DNA of 64,000 nt, taken from positions 46,995 to 110,994 of the forward strand of contig AP023053.1 in the NCBI GenBank assembly GCA_019703815.1, read 5' to 3'. The position numbers and the translations under genes were made by a program. This stretch comes from Thaumasiovibrio occultus. Its GTDB lineage: Bacteria > Pseudomonadota > Gammaproteobacteria > Enterobacterales > Vibrionaceae. The notes beneath the pieces are model-generated. The model was not told where the DNA came from, did no database searches, and was given only the letters and a program-made list of their open reading frames with translations. Position 1 is the first letter of the stretch; every line of letters starts with the position of its first letter. Shown here piece by piece: positions 18,734 to 35,093 of this stretch.

Positions 18734-21061
18734 TTAGGCGGTATGGTAGCGGTAGAACACGGTCGCTAAAGGCGGTAAGGTCAATGTCACCGAATGCGCT
18801 AAACCATGACTTGGCACGTCTGCGACGTCTAACTCAGCCTCGACGGGCGCATCACTGCCCCAGTAAGTGCTGCTGTCTGTGTTCAGTAGCAGTCTGTATT
18901 GCCCTTCTGTCACTGGCACTCCCAAGCGGTAGTTTTCCCGTGGCGTGGGCGTAAAGTTACTGACCACTAAAATCCGCTCGCCGTTGTCGGACAAGCGCTC
19001 GTGGGCAATAACGCTTTGCTCGGCATCACTGTGTTCGCGCCATTCAAATCCACTCGGTTCACAATCTTTTTGGTGCAGTGCTGGCTCACTGCGATAGAGA
19101 TGATTAAGGGCTTTCACCAAATGTTGCATGCCTTGATGTTTGTCGTATTGCAGCCAATGCCACTCTAACTGCGCATCGTGATTCCACTCCGCGGTTTGTG
19201 CGATTTCAGTTCCCATAAAGTTGAGCTTTTTCCCCGGCTGACCATACATGTAGCCAAGATAGGCACGTAAGTTTGCCGCCTGCTGCCACTCATCCCCCGG
19301 CATCTTGTACATCATTGAGCACTTACCATGCACGACTTCATCGTGCGAAAGGGAAAGGACATAGTTCTCACTAAAGGCGTAGCTTAGTGGCAGCGCCAAG
19401 GTGGCATGGTGATACTGACGATGGATAGGTTGTTCGCGAATATAGGCGAGGCTATCGTGCATCCAGCCCATGTTCCATTTCAATCCGAAGCCCAATCCGC
19501 CGTCGCGAGTGGGCGCTGTGACACCGGGAAACGCGGTAGACTCTTCTGCAATGGTGAGCGCATTGGGGTAACGGGCGTAGATCTCTTCGTTCATCCATCG
19601 GAGCAAGCTCACCGCATCATAGTTGATGTTGCCGCCTTCACAGTTCGGGATCCACTCATCGTGTTGACGTGAGTAATCGAGGTACAACATGGAGGCCACC
19701 GCATCCACACGCAAGCCATCGATATGGAAGTGCTCGAACCAAAACAGGGCGTTGGAAACCAACAAGCGACGCACATGATCGCGGCCATAATCGTAAATGT
19801 AGCTGTTCCAATCGTTGTGCCAGCCGCGACGTGGATCCGGATCGTGGTAAAGCGCCGTACCATCGAAGTGGGCGAGGCCATGCTCATCCGCCGGATAGTG
19901 CGCGGGCACCCAATCCAGGATCACCCCGATGCCGGCTTGGTGGCATTGATCGACGAAGAATTTGAACTCATCCGGTGAGCCATAACGACTGGTCGGGGCG
20001 AAGAGTCCGATCGGCTGATAGCCCCAAGAGCCAAAGAACGGATGCTCGCTAACAGGCAGTAGCTCAACATGGCTATAGCCCATCTCGACCAGATAAGGGA
20101 TCAGTTCGGCTGCCAACTCACGATAGGTCAGGAAATCCCCGTTGGCATGGCGTTTCCAAGAGCCTGCATGCAACTCGTAAAATGACAGAGCTTCTTTATG
20201 CTTGGCCGTGACTGGACGTTGCTGCCACGCGCTGTCTTGCCAGTGGTATTGGTTTTGATCGTAGACAATCGACGAAAACGACGGATATTGCTCGGCGTGA
20301 TAGCCCCATGGATCTTGCTTGTGGGGTAGTGCGTTTCCTTGGCTGTCTTTTAAGGCATATTTATAGCAATCGCCACCGTTAAGGCCCGGAATAAACAACA
20401 GCCAGCAGCCATGATCAATACGCTGCATTGGATGGCGGCGCTCATCCCAGTGGTTGAAATCGCCAATGACGCTGACTGCGCTGGCGTTGGGCGCAAACAC
20501 AATAAAGCGAACGCCCTCTACTTGTTGGTCGCCTCGGGTTGCGGTGTGCAATTGTGCGCCCATTTCACTGTGCGCCAACGCCGGCGTATGCAATGCCTCA
20601 AGTGCAGGCGCTGCGTCGTGAAATTGGTAAGGGTCAATCACGGTTTGGGTCTGACCTTGCCAATCAATGGTGAGGGAGTAGAGCTGATCGCGCAGATCCA
20701 GATCGCAATGCAGCACAAAACTGCTGGTCTCGGCGTCCCGTCTTGGTTGAGTGGTTTTGTGGGTTGATTGGGTTAGGGGATCAGAGGTACGTAGTGCTTT
20801 GTGATCAGAGGAGCTTAGGGCCTCGAGAGCAGAAGTACAAAGGGCAGCGGTTGTCTCTGCCGCCGAATGGACAGTTTCGCGAGTTAGCTTGAGCGTTTGT
20901 CCTGTGAACGTATTGACACTGACAGCGCTCGCGCCAGGCATAAATACACGTAGGGCCACATCTTGCGCGTACGGCCCTAGCGTTGAAAACGGGTTGTTAT
21001 AGGCTGCTTTGTCGAGTTGCGATAAAGCGTGTTGAAGTGTGTTAACCGATTCTGATTTCAT
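18734..21061 (-). CDS. glgB: 1,4-alpha-glucan branching enzyme
   Basis: GH13 blocks ([44 protein letters not shown]). CBM48 N-domain. Start chosen at MKSESV with AGGA SD. ORF extends to 21241 with a TTG/ATG-less leader. Confidence 0.85.
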
Positions 21062-25315: not shown

Positions 25316-25915
25316 ATGAATGAGAACAACGCACGTCAGGGCGATAAAAAAGAACAAACCCTGCAGGCGGCGATTGAGCTATTTGCCACGCTGGGTTACG
25401 AAAATACCTCGATAGCGGCGATCTGCACGCACGCTAATGTCTCAAAAGGCCTGGTTTTCCATCACTTTAAAAACAAAGAAGATTTGCTTAGAGCGGTGTT
25501 CTTGCGCATGGCCCAGCTCATTAATGAAGTGAGTGTTGATGCTAACGCAAAAGCGAGCGCGGCTGTGGTGACGCCCAAAGAGCGGTTTATTCATTTGGTT
25601 GAGCAAATTTTCACGTCGATGGCGAATGCAGAGCAAAAACGCTATTACCAACTGGATTATCAAATCAAGTGCCAGCCTGCGATGCGGGAAATATTGAAAG
25701 ACTTACTGGATGCGCGCTATCAGCTAATGATGGCGTCGTTTGAGCCCATTTTAGCGATGGTGCCTGCTGCCGATGTGTTGGTGGATAGCCACTCACTAAT
25801 TGCCGAAATCGATGGGATCGCGCTGAACTATTTGTTTGCCGATGACACCTACCCATTGGCCGCGATCAAAGCACGCTTTATTAAAAAACAGTTATTGCTG
25901 TTGGGCTTAGCGTAA
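25316..25915 (+). CDS. TetR/AcrR family transcriptional regulator
   Basis: N-terminal HTH TLQAAIELFATLGYENTSIAAICTHANVSKGLVFHHFKNKEDLL. Confidence 0.85.
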   Translation: MNENNARQGDKKEQTLQAAIELFATLGYENTSIAAICTHANVSKGLVFHHFKNKEDLLRAVFLRMAQLINEVSVDANAKASAAVVTPKERFIHLVEQIFTSMANAEQKRYYQLDYQIKCQPAMREILKDLLDARYQLMMASFEPILAMVPAADVLVDSHSLIAEIDGIALNYLFADDTYPLAAIKARFIKKQLLLLGLA

Positions 25916-27290: not shown

Positions 27291-28877
27291 CTACTGACGT
27301 TTAATGTCCTTCCATGCCAAGCCAAATTTGGCCAAATATTTTTGCAATCGGCTCGAATCGTTCGATGAAGACTTACTCAGCCGACTGACGTTAAACAGCT
27401 CGCGCCCGGCGCTGGCGAGGGTATTCGCGCTCTGACATACCGACAACACATAGTTAAGTTGTTGCTGATCGAAATTATCGAGCTGGCTCGGATCTGCGAG
27501 ATGATCTGCCAGCACGAGCGAGCTTTCACGGGGCGCTGTCCATGAGGCTTTGAGGCGTTCAATTTCGGCGTGCACGTCATCCAGCGCGATGCGCGATTGA
27601 TCGGCGAGCGTGCATAAACGGGTGATCGCCGCGCCTAAATCACGAAAGTTACCGAGCCACAACGCCTCCGGTGATTGGGCGAAACGCAAAAAGGCGGTTT
27701 TGGCTTCTTTGTTAAACTGCACTCGGTGGTTGTTCTTTTCCATAAAGCGCGTCAGCTCAAACTCGACGTTGGCGGGAATATCTTCGCGGCGATCACGCAG
27801 CGCAGGCAGTTGGTAGTGCCATAGGTTGATCCGCGCGAGTAAGTCTTCACGAAACTGACCTTGCGCCACCATCTGTTTTAAATCGCGATTGGTGCCGGCG
27901 ATCAGCTGGAAATCACTGCATAACGCTTTATCGCTGCCGACAGGATAAAACTGTTTATTTTCGATGGCATGGAGCAACATGGCTTGCTCTTCAAGGCCCA
28001 ACTCGCCTACTTCATCCAAAAATAATACGCCGTGATGGGCGGTGAGTAAAAATCCGTCCCGCGCTTTTAATGCGCCAGTAAACGCCCCCTTGGTATGACC
28101 AAACAGCGCGGCCATCGCATTTTCGCCGCGCAGTGTGGCACAGTTGACCGCAACAAATTCCCCTTTGACCATGGCGCGGCGCTTTTTAAGCTGGAAGATC
28201 CGCGAAGCGAGTTGCGATTTTCCCGCGCCCGTCGCGCCTGTGAGCAAAATCGGCTCACACGAGCGGATCGCCACTTTTTCGATTTCACTGATCAAGCGGT
28301 TGAACGCCGCATTTTGGGTGTTGATCCCGCCTTTTAAAAACGCGCTACCTTCTTGGTGTTCGATATCAAAACGGTTAGCTAGTTGATCGTATTTCGAGAG
28401 ATCAAGATCGATGATTTGTACTTGCCCCACCGAAGGGCTAGCGGCATCTCTATCTGGGGAGGACTGGATCAAGCGACCCGGGAAATGACGGCTTTCAGTC
28501 AGCAGATACGAGCAGATCTGCACCACGTGGGTGCCAGTCGTAATATGAAACAGGAGATCTTGCTGTTCGGGATCAAACGATTGCTCTTTGCACCAGTCGA
28601 ACAACTTGGCATAGACTTCGCCAAAATCCCATGGATCGATAAAGTGAGTGGTTTCCAGTATCACTTTGGTGTCAGGCGAGACGCTGTAGATGTCTTCCGT
28701 GATTTGGTTGGCAAGTCGACTGTGGCGCTCATCATGCAACAAATACAGCTCATTTATTTGTAAGTCTTCTTGGCTACATAAACTGACATTGGGTCGCCAT
28801 CGCGCCCAACGATTGCCGCGTTTGCCGACAAAATCGAGTTGCGTACCGAGTAAACTGACCGCTACCGTTTTCTTCAT
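27291..28877 (-). CDS. rtcR: sigma-54-dependent transcriptional activator RtcR (N-terminal CARF-like domain, AAA+ sigma54-interaction domain)
   Basis: Walker A LLTGATGAGKS. GAFTGA motif (HTKGAFTGA). RtcR-specific N-terminal domain. 528 aa. Confidence 0.85.
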   Translation of the reverse strand: MKKTVAVSLLGTQLDFVGKRGNRWARWRPNVSLCSQEDLQINELYLLHDERHSRLANQITEDIYSVSPDTKVILETTHFIDPWDFGEVYAKLFDWCKEQSFDPEQQDLLFHITTGTHVVQICSYLLTESRHFPGRLIQSSPDRDAASPSVGQVQIIDLDLSKYDQLANRFDIEHQEGSAFLKGGINTQNAAFNRLISEIEKVAIRSCEPILLTGATGAGKSQLASRIFQLKKRRAMVKGEFVAVNCATLRGENAMAALFGHTKGAFTGALKARDGFLLTAHHGVLFLDEVGELGLEEQAMLLHAIENKQFYPVGSDKALCSDFQLIAGTNRDLKQMVAQGQFREDLLARINLWHYQLPALRDRREDIPANVEFELTRFMEKNNHRVQFNKEAKTAFLRFAQSPEALWLGNFRDLGAAITRLCTLADQSRIALDDVHAEIERLKASWTAPRESSLVLADHLADPSQLDNFDQQQLNYVLSVCQSANTLASAGRELFNVSRLSKSSSNDSSRLQKYLAKFGLAWKDIKRQ

Positions 28878-29257
28878 TTCATCCTATCCATGTAGATAAA
28901 ACCGTATCGGATGAGCTTAAAGTGGTTGCGGTATAAACACCAGCGAGCAGAGATGAAAAGGGTAGAAAACAAAGCCGTATCAGTGAGCTAAAGTCAAACT
29001 CAGGGAGATGTGTCGCAGAGAATGCGTGTTGTGCGATCTTATAATGGCCCGCAGTTGTCGGTGGCAAGGAATGTTATATGTGGAGACGAATGGGCTAGGC
29101 GATTTGGCGATGGAAAAAGGGATGAGATGGCAGAACGTTTCGTGACCATCCTTATTATCCGGCGGATTTGGTGCATGCCGCTGTTTAGCTATCATTTTTG
29201 CCAACAAAACGCCGCTAAGATCAGCGGCGTTTTTTATGATGCGAAGTTGGGCGGTAG

Positions 29258-29782
29258 TTATATCCAACCGGCCGCCACCAGTATTTTCAGACCGGCGGTT
29301 TTCATTTGCAGTAACAGCACGATAAAGCCTATAACCGTCGCGACCTGTCGCATCCGCTGCAATATTTTAGGTGAGCTTGCCATTACATTAAGAATAACAA
29401 AGCCAATGATCGCGAATATGCCTGCGGCAATCTTCGAGGTTTCTAATGACGGACCAAACAGACCGCTATCGTGAAGAGAAGGAATGGAAAGATAAGCGAT
29501 GACAGCGGGATAAGCGAAGCGCACCAGAATATCATCTAAGGTCAGCGCGCTAGATAGCGTTACGAGAAGGAAGACAAAACACAGAACAAGAGCTAAAGGT
29601 ACGATCAGAAACGAGAGTATGCCAACGTCGCCTTCTAGCAGGAGAACCGCAAGCCAGGTCGTGGTTGCGAATAGCATATAATTAAGAATACCCAAACCTA
29701 AGTGGGTGGTCGTAAGGAATTTGGCGGTGTCATCAGCTGCGCGACTCATTATGAAGATAGTCCTATTGGGAATGAAAGCCAT
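29258..29782 (-). CDS. small multi-TM membrane protein of unknown function
   Basis: 4-5 hydrophobic helices. Start uncertain: the ORF opens with TTG at 29815, and in-frame ATGs lie at 29782 and 29749. Confidence 0.5.
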   Translation of the reverse strand: MAFIPNRTIFIMSRAADDTAKFLTTTHLGLGILNYMLFATTTWLAVLLLEGDVGILSFLIVPLALVLCFVFLLVTLSSALTLDDILVRFAYPAVIAYLSIPSLHDSGLFGPSLETSKIAAGIFAIIGFVILNVMASSPKILQRMRQVATVIGFIVLLLQMKTAGLKILVAAGWI

Positions 29783-29895
29783 AGGATTGTAATGTCTTAT
29801 TGATTTTTCGCTCAATATATTTTGTGTGAATTTACTGTCAAATCAGAGATCTATGACACATATTATGCGCTTTAGTATCTCAACGCGGTGGCTGC

Positions 29896-30693
29896 TTAAA
29901 ATACGCACGGGCTACTGCCATGGAAAGCTTGGCCTGTGGCGGGGTGAGTAAACTGGATCTCGCTGGCATGAAGCATCAGATGTTGCGCGTTACATTGAGC
30001 GGCGAGGTTGATAGATTCGGCCGTGTTATAAAGATCGCAACCTAAAATGGGGTGGCCAAATTCCAAGCTATGAATCCGCAGTTGATGGGTACGACCGGTT
30101 ATTGGGGTGTATTGCACCAATGTTCTTTTAGGGTTATCCAAACGGCGTATCACTTGGTAATGACTGACCGCATTTTTCCCTTCGGTGTGGCAAATTTTCA
30201 CACGGGGAAAGAGCGCTTTATCTTTCGCAATGGGAGCAGAGATCTGGCCGCTGTCTGCTTCAACCCAGCCAGCAAGCATAGCGAGATAACGCTTTTGCAC
30301 CGTTCGGGCTTGAAACTGCTTATTGAGGCTTGTCGATGCCGCGCTGTTGAGCGCCACCACCATAATGCCGGACGTCCATAGATCTAATCGATGCGGCAAT
30401 TTGGCATTCTCAAAGGCTCCAGTTGCTTCTTTATTTTCAGCTGCTTCGTTCGTTTCGTTTGTCGAAACGCTATTTGGCGAATCTGCGCGACCTGTTGCGT
30501 TCGTACATTGGCCGCGCACCAGACGGTAATGAACGGAATCCCAATTGAGTGGGTTTTTACCCGATAGGCTGAGCAAACCGCTCGGTTTATTGATCAGCAA
30601 GATATCGTCATCTTGATACAGGATCTCGACCTCTGCCAGACACTCAGGTGCGACAAAATTATCAACGATTTCACTAGAAACTGAGTTAGACAT
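29896..30693 (-). CDS. RluA-family pseudouridine synthase with an internal low-complexity insertion
   Basis: ILYQDDDILLINKPSGLLS...HRLDLWTSGIMVVA (catalytic Asp in HRLD). QLRIH and HA motifs. About 45 aa Ser/Thr/Asn/Glu-rich insert before HRLD. Longer ORF to 30798 possible. Confidence 0.75.
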   Translation of the reverse strand: MSNSVSSEIVDNFVAPECLAEVEILYQDDDILLINKPSGLLSLSGKNPLNWDSVHYRLVRGQCTNATGRADSPNSVSTNETNEAAENKEATGAFENAKLPHRLDLWTSGIMVVALNSAASTSLNKQFQARTVQKRYLAMLAGWVEADSGQISAPIAKDKALFPRVKICHTEGKNAVSHYQVIRRLDNPKRTLVQYTPITGRTHQLRIHSLEFGHPILGCDLYNTAESINLAAQCNAQHLMLHASEIQFTHPATGQAFHGSSPCVF

Positions 30694-30821
30694 AAAAAGT
30701 GCTTGATGGAAAAAGATCAGATGGAATACAGAGGGCCGAATTATAATGCTGCCGGCACCGCGAGCTAGCACTTTTTTATCAATACTCGGATTGGTCATCG
30801 CAGAGCATGTCGGTATGTTTT

Positions 30822-30870
30822 GCTTCCTGCTTCCTGCTTCCTGCTTCCTGCTTCCTGCTTCCTGCTTCCT
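30822..30870. repeat. heptanucleotide tandem repeat (GCTTCCT)x7
   Basis: Seven perfect contiguous copies, seen directly. Lies in the leader/promoter region of the RluA-like gene. Confidence 0.95.
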
Positions 30871-31052
30871 TAACCCATTTTATTTCGTTCTACATCGCTA
30901 CTCACTTTGATTGTCTGGATAAGTGTGTATCTATATGGATAGCTTGTTTGTGTTTCAGGTTTTCAGGCCACAACCTGTGATAAAAGCATCTGAGTTTTTA
31001 ATTCATTTAAAATCAACTACATAAAAAATATTTCTCCTCACTTAGCACAGGT

Positions 31053-31068
31053 TGGCACGCGACTTGGA
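31053..31068 (+). promoter_or_regulatory. candidate sigma-54 (-24/-12) promoter
   Basis: TGGCACG-CGAC-TTGGA: perfect -24 element and spacing, -12 element with TTGG instead of TTGC. Sits about 130 nt upstream of the tRNA-like element on the rtcBA strand. RtcR is a sigma54 activator. Confidence 0.45.
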
Positions 31069-31186
31069 ATAACTCAGTCGTGATTGATGGTGACTCTGGG
31101 TTCACCACGGTGCGCTAAGCGATGCGACTGCGTATGCCGTCTGTCACACGGTAAAGCCCTTTCACGGCTTGGGTTCAACTCCCAAA

Positions 31187-31259
31187 CATAAGATAGCTCA
31201 ATAGGTAGAGCGCCAAACGGCAACGTTGGATGTCGCGGGTTCGATTCCCGCTCTTAATG
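31187..31259 (+). ncRNA. tRNA-like element (degenerate tRNA or Y-RNA/YrlA-like RNA)
   Basis: Perfect D-arm GCTC-AATAGGTA-GAGC. Perfect T-arm GCGGG-TTCGATT-CCCGC. 5-nt variable loop ATGTC. Anticodon arm with 4 bp plus mismatch and loop CGGCAAC (G at position 33). Acceptor stem pairs only 5 of 7. No CCA. Confidence 0.5.
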
Positions 31260-31421
31260 ACCATATATGTGCAACACGCCAACAACGTGAGTTGCCAATG
31301 GATGAACAGCGCCCCTGATTTAGGGGAAGTGGCAAGCATACGCTCCCTGCTTCCTACACCTTAGACGGCCCTGCTCACTACGCAATTTTACTTTGTTGGT
31401 TATCAACACGAGGAAGTGACG

Positions 31422-32579
31422 ATGAAAAAATATCAAAAAAATATCACGGTAACGGAAGGCCAACGCGCGTTGCTATTTAAAAACGAACAATTTCAAACAG
31501 TGTTGCCAGTCGGGCAGCACAAATTTTGGGACTTTTCCGATAAGGTGCGGTTTAAGCTGATCAGCCTCAATACGGTTTTTGTGACCGATGCAGATGTGAT
31601 CCGCTTATACCGCGAAGGGGCACTGCAAGACGACATCTTGCACTGGAAACTGTCGCCAACCGAAACCGGTTTGCTCTATTTCAACGATGTGTTGCTGGGG
31701 ATTGTCGCGCCGAACGAGCACGTTTATGTCTGGCAAGCGGCGGGGGAATATCGCTTAGAAAAAGTCGACTTAGAGAGTGATGTTGAAGTAAAAGGCGCAA
31801 TGCTGCGCGATATTGAACGCTCGAATAAGAACACCGCGAGCAAGTTGATCCACAGTGCCAGCACTCATGCGATCCAACCGGTGAAATCTATCCGTGTGGA
31901 TAAACAACAAGTAGCGTTGCTGTTCTTTAACGGTCGTTATCAAACCGCATTGCAACCGGGCAATTACGGTTACTGGCAGTTTATGCACGATATTGATGTC
32001 CGCCAATACGATTTGCGTACTCGGACGTTTGAGGTCACCGGCCAAGAGATCTTAAGCAAAGATCGGGTGAGCCTGCGGATCAACCTGAGCGCTAACATTC
32101 GCATTAGCGATCCCATGTTGGCTGCGACCACGGTGGAGAGTGTGGATGATTTCATCTACCAGCGTTTGCAGCTGGCTTTGCGTGAAGCGGTCGGCACCAA
32201 AACCTTGGATGATATCTTGCAAGACAAGCTCTACATCAACCACACCGTGCGCGAGTTGGTAGCGGAGCAGTTGGCACGTGTTGGCGTGGTGCTAGAAAGT
32301 GTCGGGGTGAAAGACATCATCTTGCCGGGCGAAATGAAAGCGATTTTGAATCAGGTGGTGGAAGCGCAGAAAGCCGCAGAAGCGAACGTGATCAAGCGCC
32401 GTGAAGAAACCGCTGCCACCCGCAGCTTGCACAATACCGCCAAAGTGATGGAGAACAACCCGACGCTAATGCGCTTGAAAGAGTTGGAAGCGCTAGAGAA
32501 GGTGTCGGAGAAGATCAGCAACTTGACGGTGTATGGCGGCTTGGAAGGCTTGATGCAAGGTGTGGTAAAGCTGACTTAA
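31422..32579 (+). CDS. cytosolic SPFH/band-7 (stomatin/slipin-like) domain protein
   Basis: C-terminal two thirds match SPFH core and coiled-coil (ILPGEMKAILNQVVEAQKAAEANVIKRREETAA). No TM segment. N-terminal beta-rich domain of about 150 aa. GAGGAAG SD. Confidence 0.75.
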   Translation: MKKYQKNITVTEGQRALLFKNEQFQTVLPVGQHKFWDFSDKVRFKLISLNTVFVTDADVIRLYREGALQDDILHWKLSPTETGLLYFNDVLLGIVAPNEHVYVWQAAGEYRLEKVDLESDVEVKGAMLRDIERSNKNTASKLIHSASTHAIQPVKSIRVDKQQVALLFFNGRYQTALQPGNYGYWQFMHDIDVRQYDLRTRTFEVTGQEILSKDRVSLRINLSANIRISDPMLAATTVESVDDFIYQRLQLALREAVGTKTLDDILQDKLYINHTVRELVAEQLARVGVVLESVGVKDIILPGEMKAILNQVVEAQKAAEANVIKRREETAATRSLHNTAKVMENNPTLMRLKELEALEKVSEKISNLTVYGGLEGLMQGVVKLT

Positions 32580-32733
32580 TCGGTCTAAAAACCTAGCGGT
32601 AATAAACCTAGCGGTAAGAAACGCAGAGCAAATAAACCGAAAGCAAATCAACTTGAAGCAAGAGAGCCGCCTGGTAGGTTTAGGCGAGGCGGCTCAGCTA
32701 TCCAAAATAGAATCAAAAATGAAGGAGCATAGT

Positions 32734-33960
32734 ATGTGTCAGAAATTTAATCTTTATGAATCAGAAGGCAAGGCCGCCATCAAAGCATGGACCCAAGGGG
32801 TGCCTTTTGAAGACGAGGCGCGTGCCCAGCTTGATAACATTGCCGCGATGCCAATTATTCACTCCCATATTGCGGTGATGCCGGATGTGCATTTAGGCAA
32901 AGGGGCGACGATTGGTAGCGTTATTCCATCGGTGGATGCGGTGATCCCCGCTGCTGTCGGGGTCGATATTGGTTGCGGTATGGTAGCGGCGAAAACCAGC
33001 CTGCGCGCGAAAGATCTGCCGGATAACTTGCGCGGTGTGCGCTCGGCGTTTGAAGCGGCGGTGCCGCACGGACGAACGGTGTCGCGCCACCACAAGCGTG
33101 ATAAAGGCGCGTGGGGAAATATTCCCGCGTTAGTGGCGCAGGAGTGGCTAACACTGCAAGCGCGTTTTGAACGCATTTGTGAAAAACACCCAACGATCAA
33201 AAAGTCCAACAACGTCAACCATTTGGGTACCATGGGAACCGGCAACCATTTTCTTGAGCTGTGTATTGATGAGAACGATGCAGTGTGGATCATGCTTCAT
33301 TCCGGTAGCCGCGGCGTGGGGAATTTGATTGGCACCTACTTTATAGAGCTGGCCAAAAAAGAGATGGAGCGTCATCAAATTCAGTTACCGGATGTGAATT
33401 TGGCCTACCTAAAAGAAGGTAGCGAGTATTTTGATGACTACGTTGAAGCGGTGGAGTGGGCGCAAGATTTTGCCCGTAAAAACCGCGAGATCATGATGCT
33501 TAATGCGATTGCCGCGCTGCGTACTGCGCTTGGGGTGAATTTCAGTGCCAGCGAAATGGCGGTGAACTGCCACCATAACTACATTTCCCGCGAGCATCAC
33601 TTTGGTAAGGACTGTTATGTCACCCGTAAAGGGGCGGTGCGCGCGCAGCAGGGTGAGATGGGGATCATTCCAAGCAACATGGGAGAGCGTTCGTTTATCG
33701 TGCGTGGCTTGGGAAATCCTGACAGCTTTAACAGTTGCAGCCACGGTGCGGGGCGTGTGATGTCGCGAACCAAAGCCAAAAAGGTCTACACCATCAAAGA
33801 TCAAGAAGCGATGACCCAAGGGGTCGAGTGCCGCAAAGACAAAGAGGTGATTGATGAGATCCCTGCGGCATACAAAAACATCGACGATGTGATGGCGGCG
33901 CAAAGCGATTTAGTGGAAGTGGTGCATACCCTAAAACAAGTGGTGTGTGTGAAAGGCTAA
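32734..33960 (+). CDS. rtcB: RNA-splicing ligase RtcB
   Basis: AAGGAG SD before ATG 32734. Near-identical blocks to RtcB (HIAVMPDVHLGKG, GTGNHFLE, HSGSRG, CHHNY, SHGAGR). Confidence 0.9.
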   Translation: MCQKFNLYESEGKAAIKAWTQGVPFEDEARAQLDNIAAMPIIHSHIAVMPDVHLGKGATIGSVIPSVDAVIPAAVGVDIGCGMVAAKTSLRAKDLPDNLRGVRSAFEAAVPHGRTVSRHHKRDKGAWGNIPALVAQEWLTLQARFERICEKHPTIKKSNNVNHLGTMGTGNHFLELCIDENDAVWIMLHSGSRGVGNLIGTYFIELAKKEMERHQIQLPDVNLAYLKEGSEYFDDYVEAVEWAQDFARKNREIMMLNAIAALRTALGVNFSASEMAVNCHHNYISREHHFGKDCYVTRKGAVRAQQGEMGIIPSNMGERSFIVRGLGNPDSFNSCSHGAGRVMSRTKAKKVYTIKDQEAMTQGVECRKDKEVIDEIPAAYKNIDDVMAAQSDLVEVVHTLKQVVCVKG

Positions 33961-34034
33961 AACAAAACAGCCAGACGCAAAAAAACAGTTACCAAAAGCC
34001 AGATATAAAAAAACAGCGAATAGGAAAGCAACGG

Positions 34035-35093
34035 ATGCGATATATCCAAATCGACGGCAGCATGGGCGAAGGCGGCGGGCAGGTACTGCGTACGTCGTTA
34101 ACGTTATCGATGCTGTATCAAATGCCGATTGAAATTAGCAATATCCGCGCAGGACGCAATAAGCCGGGCCTGCTGCGCCAGCACTTAACGTGCGTGTTGG
34201 CGGCGGCAGAGATTTCATCTGCGCAGGTGGAAGGCGCCGAGCTTGGCGCTACTCGGTTAAGGTTTGCGCCGGGCAGCGTCAAAGCGGGGGAGTATCACTT
34301 TGCGGTGGGCTCGGCAGGCAGCACCGCATTGGTATGCCAAACGGTTTTACTGCCATTAGCGCTTACCGGGCAAGGTTCGCGCGTAATCTTCGAAGGTGGC
34401 ACCCACAATATGGCAGCCCCTTCGTTAACCTTTTTAACACAGAGCTTTCTGCCGCTACTGGCACAGCAAGGGTTGAACACTAAGGTCACGCTTGATCGGG
34501 TGGGGTTTTACCCAGCGGGTGGCGGGCGTTGGCAGTTAGATATCGATGGTGTCGCATCACTCGCGCCGCTGCGTGTTGCGCCTGAGAAAGAAACCGAAAA
34601 TTCTACGCTGACGGCTGTTGCGATGATCAGCAAGTTGGCAAACAAGATAGGTGAGCGGGAAATTACTCAGCTAGAGAAATCCCTGCGCCGCTCCCCGCTT
34701 GGTGATGTGAACGTTAGCGGACGGGTTGAGTCCGTTGAGTCTATCGGGCCGGGTAACATGTTATTGCTGACAGCAAAGAGCTACCACCATGCGCATGTCT
34801 TTGAAATGGCGGGAAGTTACGGCGTAAAAGCGGAAGCAGTTGCCAAGCGAGTTGCGGGGCGTTATTGCGAGTTTTATGAAGCAGAGGCAGAGGTTGAACA
34901 TTACTTGGCCGATCAACTATTGCTGCCTTTGCTGGTGGGCGGCGCTGGCGCGTTTATCACTTCTGTGCCGAGTGGCCATTTGCAAACCAATGTGGCGCTC
35001 ATTCGCCAACTGACCGGAAAACCGCTGACACTAACACCACATGGTGAAAGCCGCTTCGGCGCACCACGCTGGCAGGTGGCGCTCAGTCGTTAG
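34035..35093 (+). CDS. rtcA: RNA 3'-terminal phosphate cyclase RtcA
   Basis: IDGSMGEGGGQVLRTSLTLS and IRAGRNKPGLLRQHL blocks. Catalytic His region. AGGAAA SD. Confidence 0.85.
   Translation: MRYIQIDGSMGEGGGQVLRTSLTLSMLYQMPIEISNIRAGRNKPGLLRQHLTCVLAAAEISSAQVEGAELGATRLRFAPGSVKAGEYHFAVGSAGSTALVCQTVLLPLALTGQGSRVIFEGGTHNMAAPSLTFLTQSFLPLLAQQGLNTKVTLDRVGFYPAGGGRWQLDIDGVASLAPLRVAPEKETENSTLTAVAMISKLANKIGEREITQLEKSLRRSPLGDVNVSGRVESVESIGPGNMLLLTAKSYHHAHVFEMAGSYGVKAEAVAKRVAGRYCEFYEAEAEVEHYLADQLLLPLLVGGAGAFITSVPSGHLQTNVALIRQLTGKPLTLTPHGESRFGAPRWQVALSR

Follow-up and report, generated by a model that had tools for sequence, protein, structure and literature searches.

The window analysed here is a 64,000-nt stretch of Thaumasiovibrio occultus (Vibrionaceae; GCA_019703815.1, AP023053.1, positions 46,995-110,994, forward strand), and the element in question is a sigma-54-type -24/-12 box located upstream of a slipin gene, rtcB and rtcA. 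The box lies within the 623-nt intergenic region 30799-31421, downstream of a minus-strand pseudouridine synthase gene, and slipin, rtcB and rtcA all follow it on its own strand. Based on sequence comparison, it is very likely that 31053-31069 is a functional RtcR-dependent sigma-54 promoter and that the transcript starting at about 31079 consists of a structured leader followed by slipin-rtcB-rtcA. The genes and the promoter elements are as follows.

31053-31069, plus strand: sigma-54-type -24/-12 box TGGCACGCGACTTGGAA, GG at 31054-31055 and G of the -12 element at 31066
30917-30941, no strand: putative promoter-proximal upstream activating sequence, a GGATA half-site, a 6-nt spacer and the perfect palindrome TATCTATATGGATA
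31011-31023, plus strand: integration host factor (IHF)-like site AATCAACTACATA, 42 nt ahead of the box and differing from WATCAANNNNTTR by one mismatch
27291-28877, minus strand: rtcR, sigma-54 enhancer-binding activator of 528 aa (Pfam RtcR, Sigma54_activat, AAA_lid_14)
31422-32579, plus strand: slipin/SPFH (Band 7) gene, the first open reading frame (ORF) of the operon (Pfam Band_7, E=6e-31)
32734-33960, plus strand: rtcB, RNA ligase (Pfam RtcB, E=6e-125)
33945-35093 as listed, plus strand: rtcA, RNA 3'-phosphate cyclase (Pfam RTC, E=1e-64, and RTC_insert)

On the plus strand the box reads TGGCACG (31053-31059), CGAC (31060-31063), TTGG (31064-31067) and A (31068). These letters, their coordinates and the strand confirmed the TGGCACG-N4-TTGG motif that the original prediction had placed at 31053-31068. 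A sigma-54 promoter carries GG at -24 and GC at -12, exactly one helical turn apart (TGGCAC-N5-TTGC). The box fitted this consensus at nine of the ten specified positions with the correct spacing, the sole mismatch being the C of the GC, where G was found at 31067. The exact pattern TGGCACGNNNNTTGG had a single match when both strands of the window were scanned, compared to 0.03 expected from dinucleotide shuffles, and was seen in 3 of 100 such shuffles. However, one-mismatch fits to TGGCAC-N5-TTGC were not rare, with five in the window, and the box sequence alone was thus only suggestive.

The comparison set comprised 80 loci encoding slipin relatives and the Photobacterium japonica locus (L081), giving 81 slipin loci. 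A subset of 48 loci from gamma- and betaproteobacteria (47 and P. japonica) carried a divergent rtcR. A TGGCAC-N5-nnG box was present on the slipin strand in all 48, and it lay 133-167 nt from the rtcR start codon in 41 of the 45 loci in which this distance was measurable. When all 1.9 Mb of locus sequence was scanned, 109 boxes matched at least nine of the ten positions and 48 of them were the rtc boxes. Conservation was counted base by base in 46 non-redundant loci, with the first T of the box (31053) as position 0, so that box+27 corresponds to 31080 in the window. Since the scan had demanded the GG at -24 and the G at -13 (the G of the -12 element), the invariance of these bases is circular and was not taken as evidence. 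Among the positions that were not pre-selected, T at 0, A at 4 and A at 16 were found in 46/46 loci, and others were likewise conserved: W15 and Y at -1 (45 each), C3 (44), C5 (43), T12 (41), T17 (40), G at +27 (43) and T at +28 (38). Where rtcB directly follows rtcR, the box was found 50-172 nt before rtcB and about 118-272 nt from rtcR, at approximately 140-160 nt in five of seven such loci. The position of the box is therefore tied to rtcR and not to the slipin gene. The conservation lifts the box above a chance match, and the original assignment of a sigma-54 promoter to an RtcR-controlled rtcBA unit was supported by the architecture conserved in the 48 loci.

The base after TTG was practically free to vary. 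Where the consensus has C at -12, the 46 loci gave only 0.07 bits. TTG was invariant in the 33 Alteromonadales/Vibrionales-type loci (33/33), and the next base was C in 1, G in 8, T in 11 and A in 13; the P. japonica box also reads TTGG. The remaining 15 loci (betaproteobacterial, Erwinia and others) had C in 13 and a variable TT. The G-for-C mismatch had been pointed out from the start and is present as claimed; because C occurs in only 1 of the 33 clade loci, this G is the norm of the clade and no defect. The canonical C seems dispensable in the RtcR-dependent promoter family. According to work from the Gralla and Buck laboratories, the -12 C in other sigma-54 promoters reportedly helps the closed complex stay silent.

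Sigma-54 promoters are served by an enhancer-binding activator with sites about 100-150 bp upstream, and an IHF site in between is common, not universal. A TATC-N6-GATA palindrome (at most one mismatch), typically TATCCAWAWAGATA, was found upstream of the box in 41 of the 48 loci and represents a candidate RtcR binding site. The matches clustered at -145 and -125 from the box, compared to a background of 0.49 per kb, and the first of the two positions (-145) abuts the rtcR start codon in the relatives. In the window, the perfect palindrome TATCTATATGGATA at 30928-30941 starts 125 nt before the box, in register with the relatives, and is preceded by the GGATA half-site at the spacing seen in the family. 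The geometry of 30917-30941 was within 2 bp of that of P. japonica sites 1 and 2. Perfect TATC-N6-GATA matches were scarce, just four in the whole window, and three of them fell within the rtc locus. A match to WATCAANNNNTTR with at most one mismatch was detected in 41 of 48 relatives, with 30 hits in the -50 to -41 bin and most at -42 to -40. The IHF-like site of the window, at -42, thus occupies the modal position, in an AT-rich region where the background is 0.82 matches per kb on each strand. Between T. occultus and P. japonica, the stretch from the palindromes to the box was poorly conserved.

Two sets of minor matches were also recorded. Inside the slipin coding region, at 31889-31902, lies TATCCGTGTGGATA, a third perfect palindrome of the kind proposed as the RtcR site. 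The clade pattern YTGGCAC-N5-TTGNWA gave three exact matches in the window where 0.06 were expected. The two extra matches, both on the minus strand, were at 19806-19823, within the glgB coding region on its sense strand, and at 25658-25675, antisense in a TetR-family gene. No palindrome precedes either of them, and they were not counted in the rtc system.

Control of E. coli rtcBA by RtcR and sigma-54 has reportedly been known since the 1998 study of Genschik et al., and the kind of promoter was for that reason itself expected. The E. coli rtcBA promoter is composed of an upstream activating sequence, an IHF site and a -24/-12 element (PMC9650030). In the E. coli sequence, an AT-rich IHF-like site lies about 40 nt before the box, and the rtcR start codon is directly adjoined by a TATCC half-site. 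Its box, TGGCACGACGGTTGCAA, is similar to TGGCACGCGACTTGGAA of the window, its downstream genes include rtcB and rtcA, and its divergent rtcR/rtc layout is that of the window's relatives. E. coli differs from the window in carrying the consensus C at -12 and in having rtcR adjacent (2.2 kb away in T. occultus). Its leader measures just about 30 nt and contains neither a structured RNA nor a tRNA-like unit, and a slipin gene is likewise missing. In Salmonella, the rsr box TGGCACGCTGGTTGCAAT was bound by sigma-54 in chromatin immunoprecipitation on microarrays (ChIP-chip), sigma-54-dependent and active in reporters (PMC3844500), and the rsr-yrlBA-rtcBA operon of Salmonella Typhimurium has an RtcR- and sigma-54-dependent promoter (PMC3844500, PMC7790460). 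There, as in the window, a sigma-54 box precedes an operon that joins tRNA-mimicking non-coding RNAs (ncRNAs) with rtcBA. However, the Salmonella operon encodes a Ro60 orthologue and has YrlB and YrlA in the interval from rsr to rtcB, whereas in the window the ncRNAs precede the first ORF, slipin is the partner protein and there is no Ro gene. By sequence, the box of the window resembles these experimentally sigma-54-dependent E. coli and Salmonella promoters. The slipin-first order was found in P. aeruginosa (rtcR / PA4582/PaFlo8 SPFH-rtcB-PA4584-rtcA, with rtcR divergent), for which RtcR control is assumed from E. coli, and the accessible text of these papers mentions neither a promoter nor a leader RNA (PMC8619066, PMC13086221).

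The original prediction described RtcR as a sigma-54 activator encoded next door. The first part held: rtcR is full length with all domains kept, namely RtcR (CARF; full profile matched, E=9e-76), Sigma54_activat (E=9e-48) and AAA_lid_14, and its product was 66-72% identical to RtcR of most marine gammaproteobacterial relatives (50-72% overall). The second part did not, as rtcR is 2.2 kb from the promoter with two minus-strand genes in between. The intervening features are as follows.

28885-28898, no strand: rtcR-proximal palindrome TATCCATGTAGATA, a perfect TATC-N6-GATA and candidate RtcR binding site, with a TATC half-site 6 nt later
29258-29815 as listed, minus strand: inserted membrane-like ORF with no family match, probable ATG at 29749
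29896-30798, minus strand: inserted RluA-family pseudouridine synthase gene (Pfam PseudoU_synth_2, E=6e-28; NCBIfam RluA subfamily, 179 bits)

In P. japonica, the closest relative (slipin 89% identical), this block is absent, and rtcR and the slipin gene are direct divergent neighbours. The same adjacent and divergent arrangement was found in about 45 other genomes, and the rtcR/slipin intergenic region measured 500-730 nt in about 45 directly divergent loci. The separation of rtcR in T. occultus was therefore regarded as secondary, the block of about 2 kb being a T. occultus-specific insertion. No tblastn match to the membrane ORF or to the pseudouridine synthase was obtained in any of the 80 related loci. 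Since both genes are unlinked to rtc in these relatives, they were treated as an insertion and not as part of the system. Moreover, TATCCATGTAGATA abuts the rtcR start and aligns with P. japonica site 1, which directly adjoins the rtcR start codon there, indicating that the ancestral region between rtcR and the promoter was split. One perfect palindrome survives on each side of the insertion (28885-28898 and 30928-30941). We also considered the inverted repeat 28884-28908 / 30918-30942 as a mark of an inversion and rejected it: the sites are themselves palindromic and their spacers are unlike, so no orientation can be read from it.

Downstream of the box the leader contains several predicted RNA elements in the following order.

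31078-31081, plus strand: predicted start of transcription; with 31067 taken as -12, +1 falls at about 31079
31080-31147, plus strand: conserved 5' leader domain of about 70 nt, a three-way junction with a covarying structure
31153-31186, plus strand: degenerate half-tRNA CUUGGGUUCAACUCCCAAA, an anticodon-arm-like and then a T-arm-like hairpin, read from the sequence
31187-31260, plus strand: tRNA-like unit fitting the predicted b7a-tRNA (short for "band 7-associated tRNA"; Rfam tRNA and model R1)
31278-31401, plus strand: 3' leader domain in which a long-range helix surrounds a hairpin (31325-31354) with the loop GGCAAGCnnnnnGCUCC

Transcription from sigma-54 promoters starts about 12 nt after the -12 element, and this geometry predicts +1 at about 31079. 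Helix P1 opens with the conserved G and T at box+27 and +28 (31080-31081) and thus starts one base after the predicted +1. P1 pairs 31080-31090 with 31137-31147 and is accompanied by the hairpin P2 and by a P3/P4 arm with conserved GGUGCG...CGUAUnCC. RNAalifold recovered P2, P3 and P4 with compensatory changes. The 5'-domain model R2 scored the window at 51.9 bits, the window sequence having been in its training set, and gave matches of 20-36 bits in 10 loci outside that set. In the alignment A6 (39 sequences), which was fitted to the model and hence leans towards the structure, 98.1% of cells pair; 77 cells had changed on both sides compared to 23.8 in shuffles, no shuffle out of 500 reached 77, and slid controls gave at most 0.153 vs 0.474. 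The mean P1 duplex energy was -8.5 kcal/mol for cognate and -4.8 kcal/mol for non-cognate strands (Mann-Whitney p=3e-11, a value inflated by sequence relatedness). No Rfam family matched the 5' domain at E<=10.

Slipin loci that have no rtcR beside them also gave R2 matches to the 5' domain, located upstream of the tRNA-like unit. Here the domain lies about 50-60 nt after an upstream terminator and there is no sigma-54 box. The domain is therefore viewed as the 5' end of a mobile ncRNA-slipin module, which appears to sit under a sigma-54 promoter wherever rtcR is present. As a whole, the T. occultus leader was 90% identical to that of P. japonica.

The tRNA-like unit was the element upstream of which the box had first been noticed. 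Rfam tRNA matched 31189-31256 with 44.7 bits (E=3e-6), ARAGORN did not call the unit at 31187-31260, and model R1, in whose training set the unit was included, scored it at 71.8 bits. It aligned with 38 units from relatives, which share its D and T arms and have variable anticodon loops. At least one such unit was present upstream of slipin in about 75 of the 81 slipin loci, mostly some 200-550 nt away, and in some loci it was located between rtcA and the slipin gene. The relatives carry one to three tandem units with nearly invariant D and T arms, AT-rich acceptor stems and hypervariable anticodon loops. The half-tRNA CUUGGGUUCAACUCCCAAA was conserved in P. japonica and did not score with R1. 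A second full unit at about 31115-31188 was considered and rejected, because R1 gave no score and only anticodon-like and T-arm-like hairpins are present.

The b7a-tRNA was predicted by Burroughs & Aravind in 2016 and never validated, according to the summary of their work in bioRxiv 10.1101/312249, a secondary source from which we also took the defining criteria. As in the window, the systems summarised there have a Band-7 gene by rtcB and a tRNA-like ncRNA immediately upstream; that summary covers the tRNA-like unit alone and does not describe a promoter layout, a 5' domain or a 3' hairpin (bioRxiv 10.1101/312249). By its sequence the window would be a typical example of the Band-7 / b7a-tRNA / RtcB system, and the unit at 31187-31260 fits the predicted b7a-tRNA and not a Y RNA. 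Rfam YrlA gave 19.5 bits compared to a gathering threshold of 69 (E=0.25), this weak score arising from the T-arm-like hairpin of the half-tRNA beside the D arm of the full unit, and the operon ORFs matched only Band_7, RtcB and RTC. The parallel originally drawn with the Y RNAs of Salmonella is thus a loose one. The related proposal, that the tRNA-like RNA is made as the 5' part of an RtcR-controlled transcript, gained support from the promoter conservation as far as the transcript is concerned. However, the unit is not its extreme 5' part, since the 31080-31147 domain and the half-tRNA precede it.

ARAGORN reads the units of the relatives as Ser, Arg, Lys, Leu, Cys or stop, or with 2-nt or 4-nt anticodons. 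Some betaproteobacterial and other loci have about 8-14 tRNA or tRNA-like genes immediately upstream of slipin. The arrays (positions within each locus) are as follows.

L055, 4253-5737: tRNA/tRNA-like array
L061, 2607-4727: tRNA/tRNA-like array
L043, 1926-5703: tRNA/tRNA-like array
L062, 121-5713: tRNA/tRNA-like array
L037, 3724-5589: tRNA/tRNA-like array

The 3' leader domain is followed by the slipin ribosome-binding site. The minimum free energy of 31257-31425 was -54.3 kcal/mol (z=-3.7), and none of 200 shuffles was as stable. The loop of the hairpin at 31325-31354 (GGCAAGCnGGAUGCUCC in relatives) was conserved and its stem covaried, with double-sided changes of the outermost pair in 9 of 16 sequences. 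The motif TGGCAAGCnGGATGCTC, about 90-120 nt before slipin, was examined as a second sigma-54 box and discarded, as the window lacks the -12 G and the spacing in P. japonica differs. It is better explained as the conserved loop of this covarying-stem hairpin.

No sigma-70-like promoter was found in 30600-32800 by a simple scan for which 2.3 were expected, and a simple scan for terminator-like sites found none on the plus strand of 31080-31421. The promoter proposed at the outset is consistent with this lack of a competing start or stop between the box and the first gene. The slipin encoded in the window is 100% identical to the recorded T. occultus slipin family protein, and RtcB is 73-80% identical to RtcB of most marine gammaproteobacterial relatives. 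The true start of rtcA is probably later than the listed 33945. The 154-nt slipin-rtcB spacer (32580-32733) contains a 15-nt tandem repeat, AAACCTAGCGGTAAG x 2.3, at 32589-32622 and a 9-bp GC-rich hairpin at about 32664-32693 without a U tract.

These data suggest the following mode of action. Sigma-54 RNA polymerase would bind the GG at -24 and the G at -12 and stay closed. RtcR would bind the TATC-N6-GATA palindrome or palindromes about 120-140 bp upstream (30917-30941), and the copy beside rtcR (28885-28898) may also bind RtcR. IHF would bend the AT-rich DNA at 31011-31023, and ATP hydrolysis by activated RtcR would then open the promoter. One long RNA would be made from about 31079, with a conserved structured non-coding leader of about 340 nt ahead of slipin, rtcB and rtcA. 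The order within the leader would be the three-way-junction domain, the half-tRNA, the b7a-tRNA unit and the 3' hairpin domain, the tRNA-like parts presumably being excised afterwards. We infer the dependence on sigma-54 and RtcR in T. occultus and the binding of RtcR to the palindromes from the conserved architecture, and we likewise infer the exact start site, the read-through into slipin-rtcBA and the processing of the leader.

With this promoter, the unvalidated b7a-tRNA would gain a predicted 5' end and be linked to an inducible promoter that is well defined, which makes its expression directly testable. A family-wide picture of RtcR promoters also emerges, with a candidate operator TATCCAWAWAGATA, an IHF-like site at -42 and a seemingly dispensable -12 C. 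The leader RNA elements are more novel than the promoter. Two further conserved elements were found in the leader, both supported by covariation, with no Rfam family and travelling with slipin even where rtcR is not adjacent. Together, the promoter architecture and the leader elements could help explain the slipin/tRNA-mimic branch of bacterial RNA repair.

Several points weigh against an RtcR-dependent sigma-54 promoter at 31053-31069. The case for the promoter, the operon and the leader is computational throughout, and part of the apparent conservation of the box is circular because of the pre-required GG and G. The absent -12 C could mean weak closed-complex formation, although the absence is clade-wide. 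Near the promoter there is one full palindrome and a half-site where relatives usually have two sites about 20 bp apart, and the IHF-like site, itself with one mismatch, lies in very AT-rich DNA, where such matches are common. In T. occultus rtcR lies 2.2 kb from the box. Finally, the literature searched contained no experimental mapping of a slipin-first rtc promoter, RtcR control being assumed from E. coli.

As regards the product of the promoter, the main RNA may be a hitherto undescribed composite, set free to act in the RtcR circuit as, for instance, bait for a nuclease, and not a 5' untranslated region. We consider this rather unlikely. Such an RNA could comprise the covarying three-way junction from +2, one to three tRNA-like units whose anticodon loops are hypervariable, and the invariant-loop hairpin. 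If a sentinel of this kind were real, the clade-wide loss of the -12 C could supply the low basal expression it would need.

It appears improbable that the box makes the leader ncRNAs only, with the slipin-rtcB-rtcA mRNA arising mainly from a downstream start, for example in 31260-31421 or in the slipin-rtcB spacer. The length (about 340 nt) and the high degree of structure of the leader would suit such an arrangement, its stable 3' domain could be a processing or pause site, and the spacer holds the GC-rich hairpin and the tandem repeat; in rtcR-less slipin loci a promoter that is not of the sigma-54 type evidently serves the leader module after the terminator. However, 31080-31421 yielded neither a sigma-70-like promoter nor a plus-strand terminator-like site, and the hairpins lack trailing U tracts. 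Furthermore, where rtcB directly follows rtcR the box lies so close to rtcB (50-172 nt) that it is the operon promoter in that architecture, and other loci have the tRNA-like unit inside the operon, between rtcA and slipin.

Loss of RtcR control after the separation, leaving the sigma-54 promoter to another enhancer-binding protein or largely silent, is suggested by the displacement of rtcR and by the reduction of one of the two upstream sites to a half-site, yet we regard it as highly improbable. Enhancer-binding proteins act in trans and the position of their gene is irrelevant to binding, so the 2.2-kb displacement is no argument against RtcR control. The rtcR gene is intact, the remaining site is a perfect family-type palindrome at the family distance (-125), and 90% identity to the insertion-free P. 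japonica is maintained over the box, IHF-like site and leader alike. Least credible is a chance match or a decayed relic without promoter activity, for which the five one-mismatch consensus fits, the clade-pattern matches inside genes at 19806 and 25658 and the missing consensus C at -12 might speak, since sequence and position are conserved together with the flanking elements across 48 gamma- and betaproteobacterial loci and a base other than C at -12 is the clade norm.

Two repeats were noted around the inserted block. Upstream of the pseudouridine synthase gene, 22 nt from its start codon, a perfect heptamer tandem repeat (TGCTTCC, 7.1 copies) occupies 30821-30870. It reads AGGAAGC on the strand of that gene and could be a length-variable element affecting its expression. 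A 14/15 inverted match, TGACACATAYTATGC, at 29854-29868 (plus strand) and 32727-32741 (minus strand) brackets the region from the pseudouridine synthase gene through the leader to slipin; it does not extend past 15 nt and was set aside as probably due to chance.

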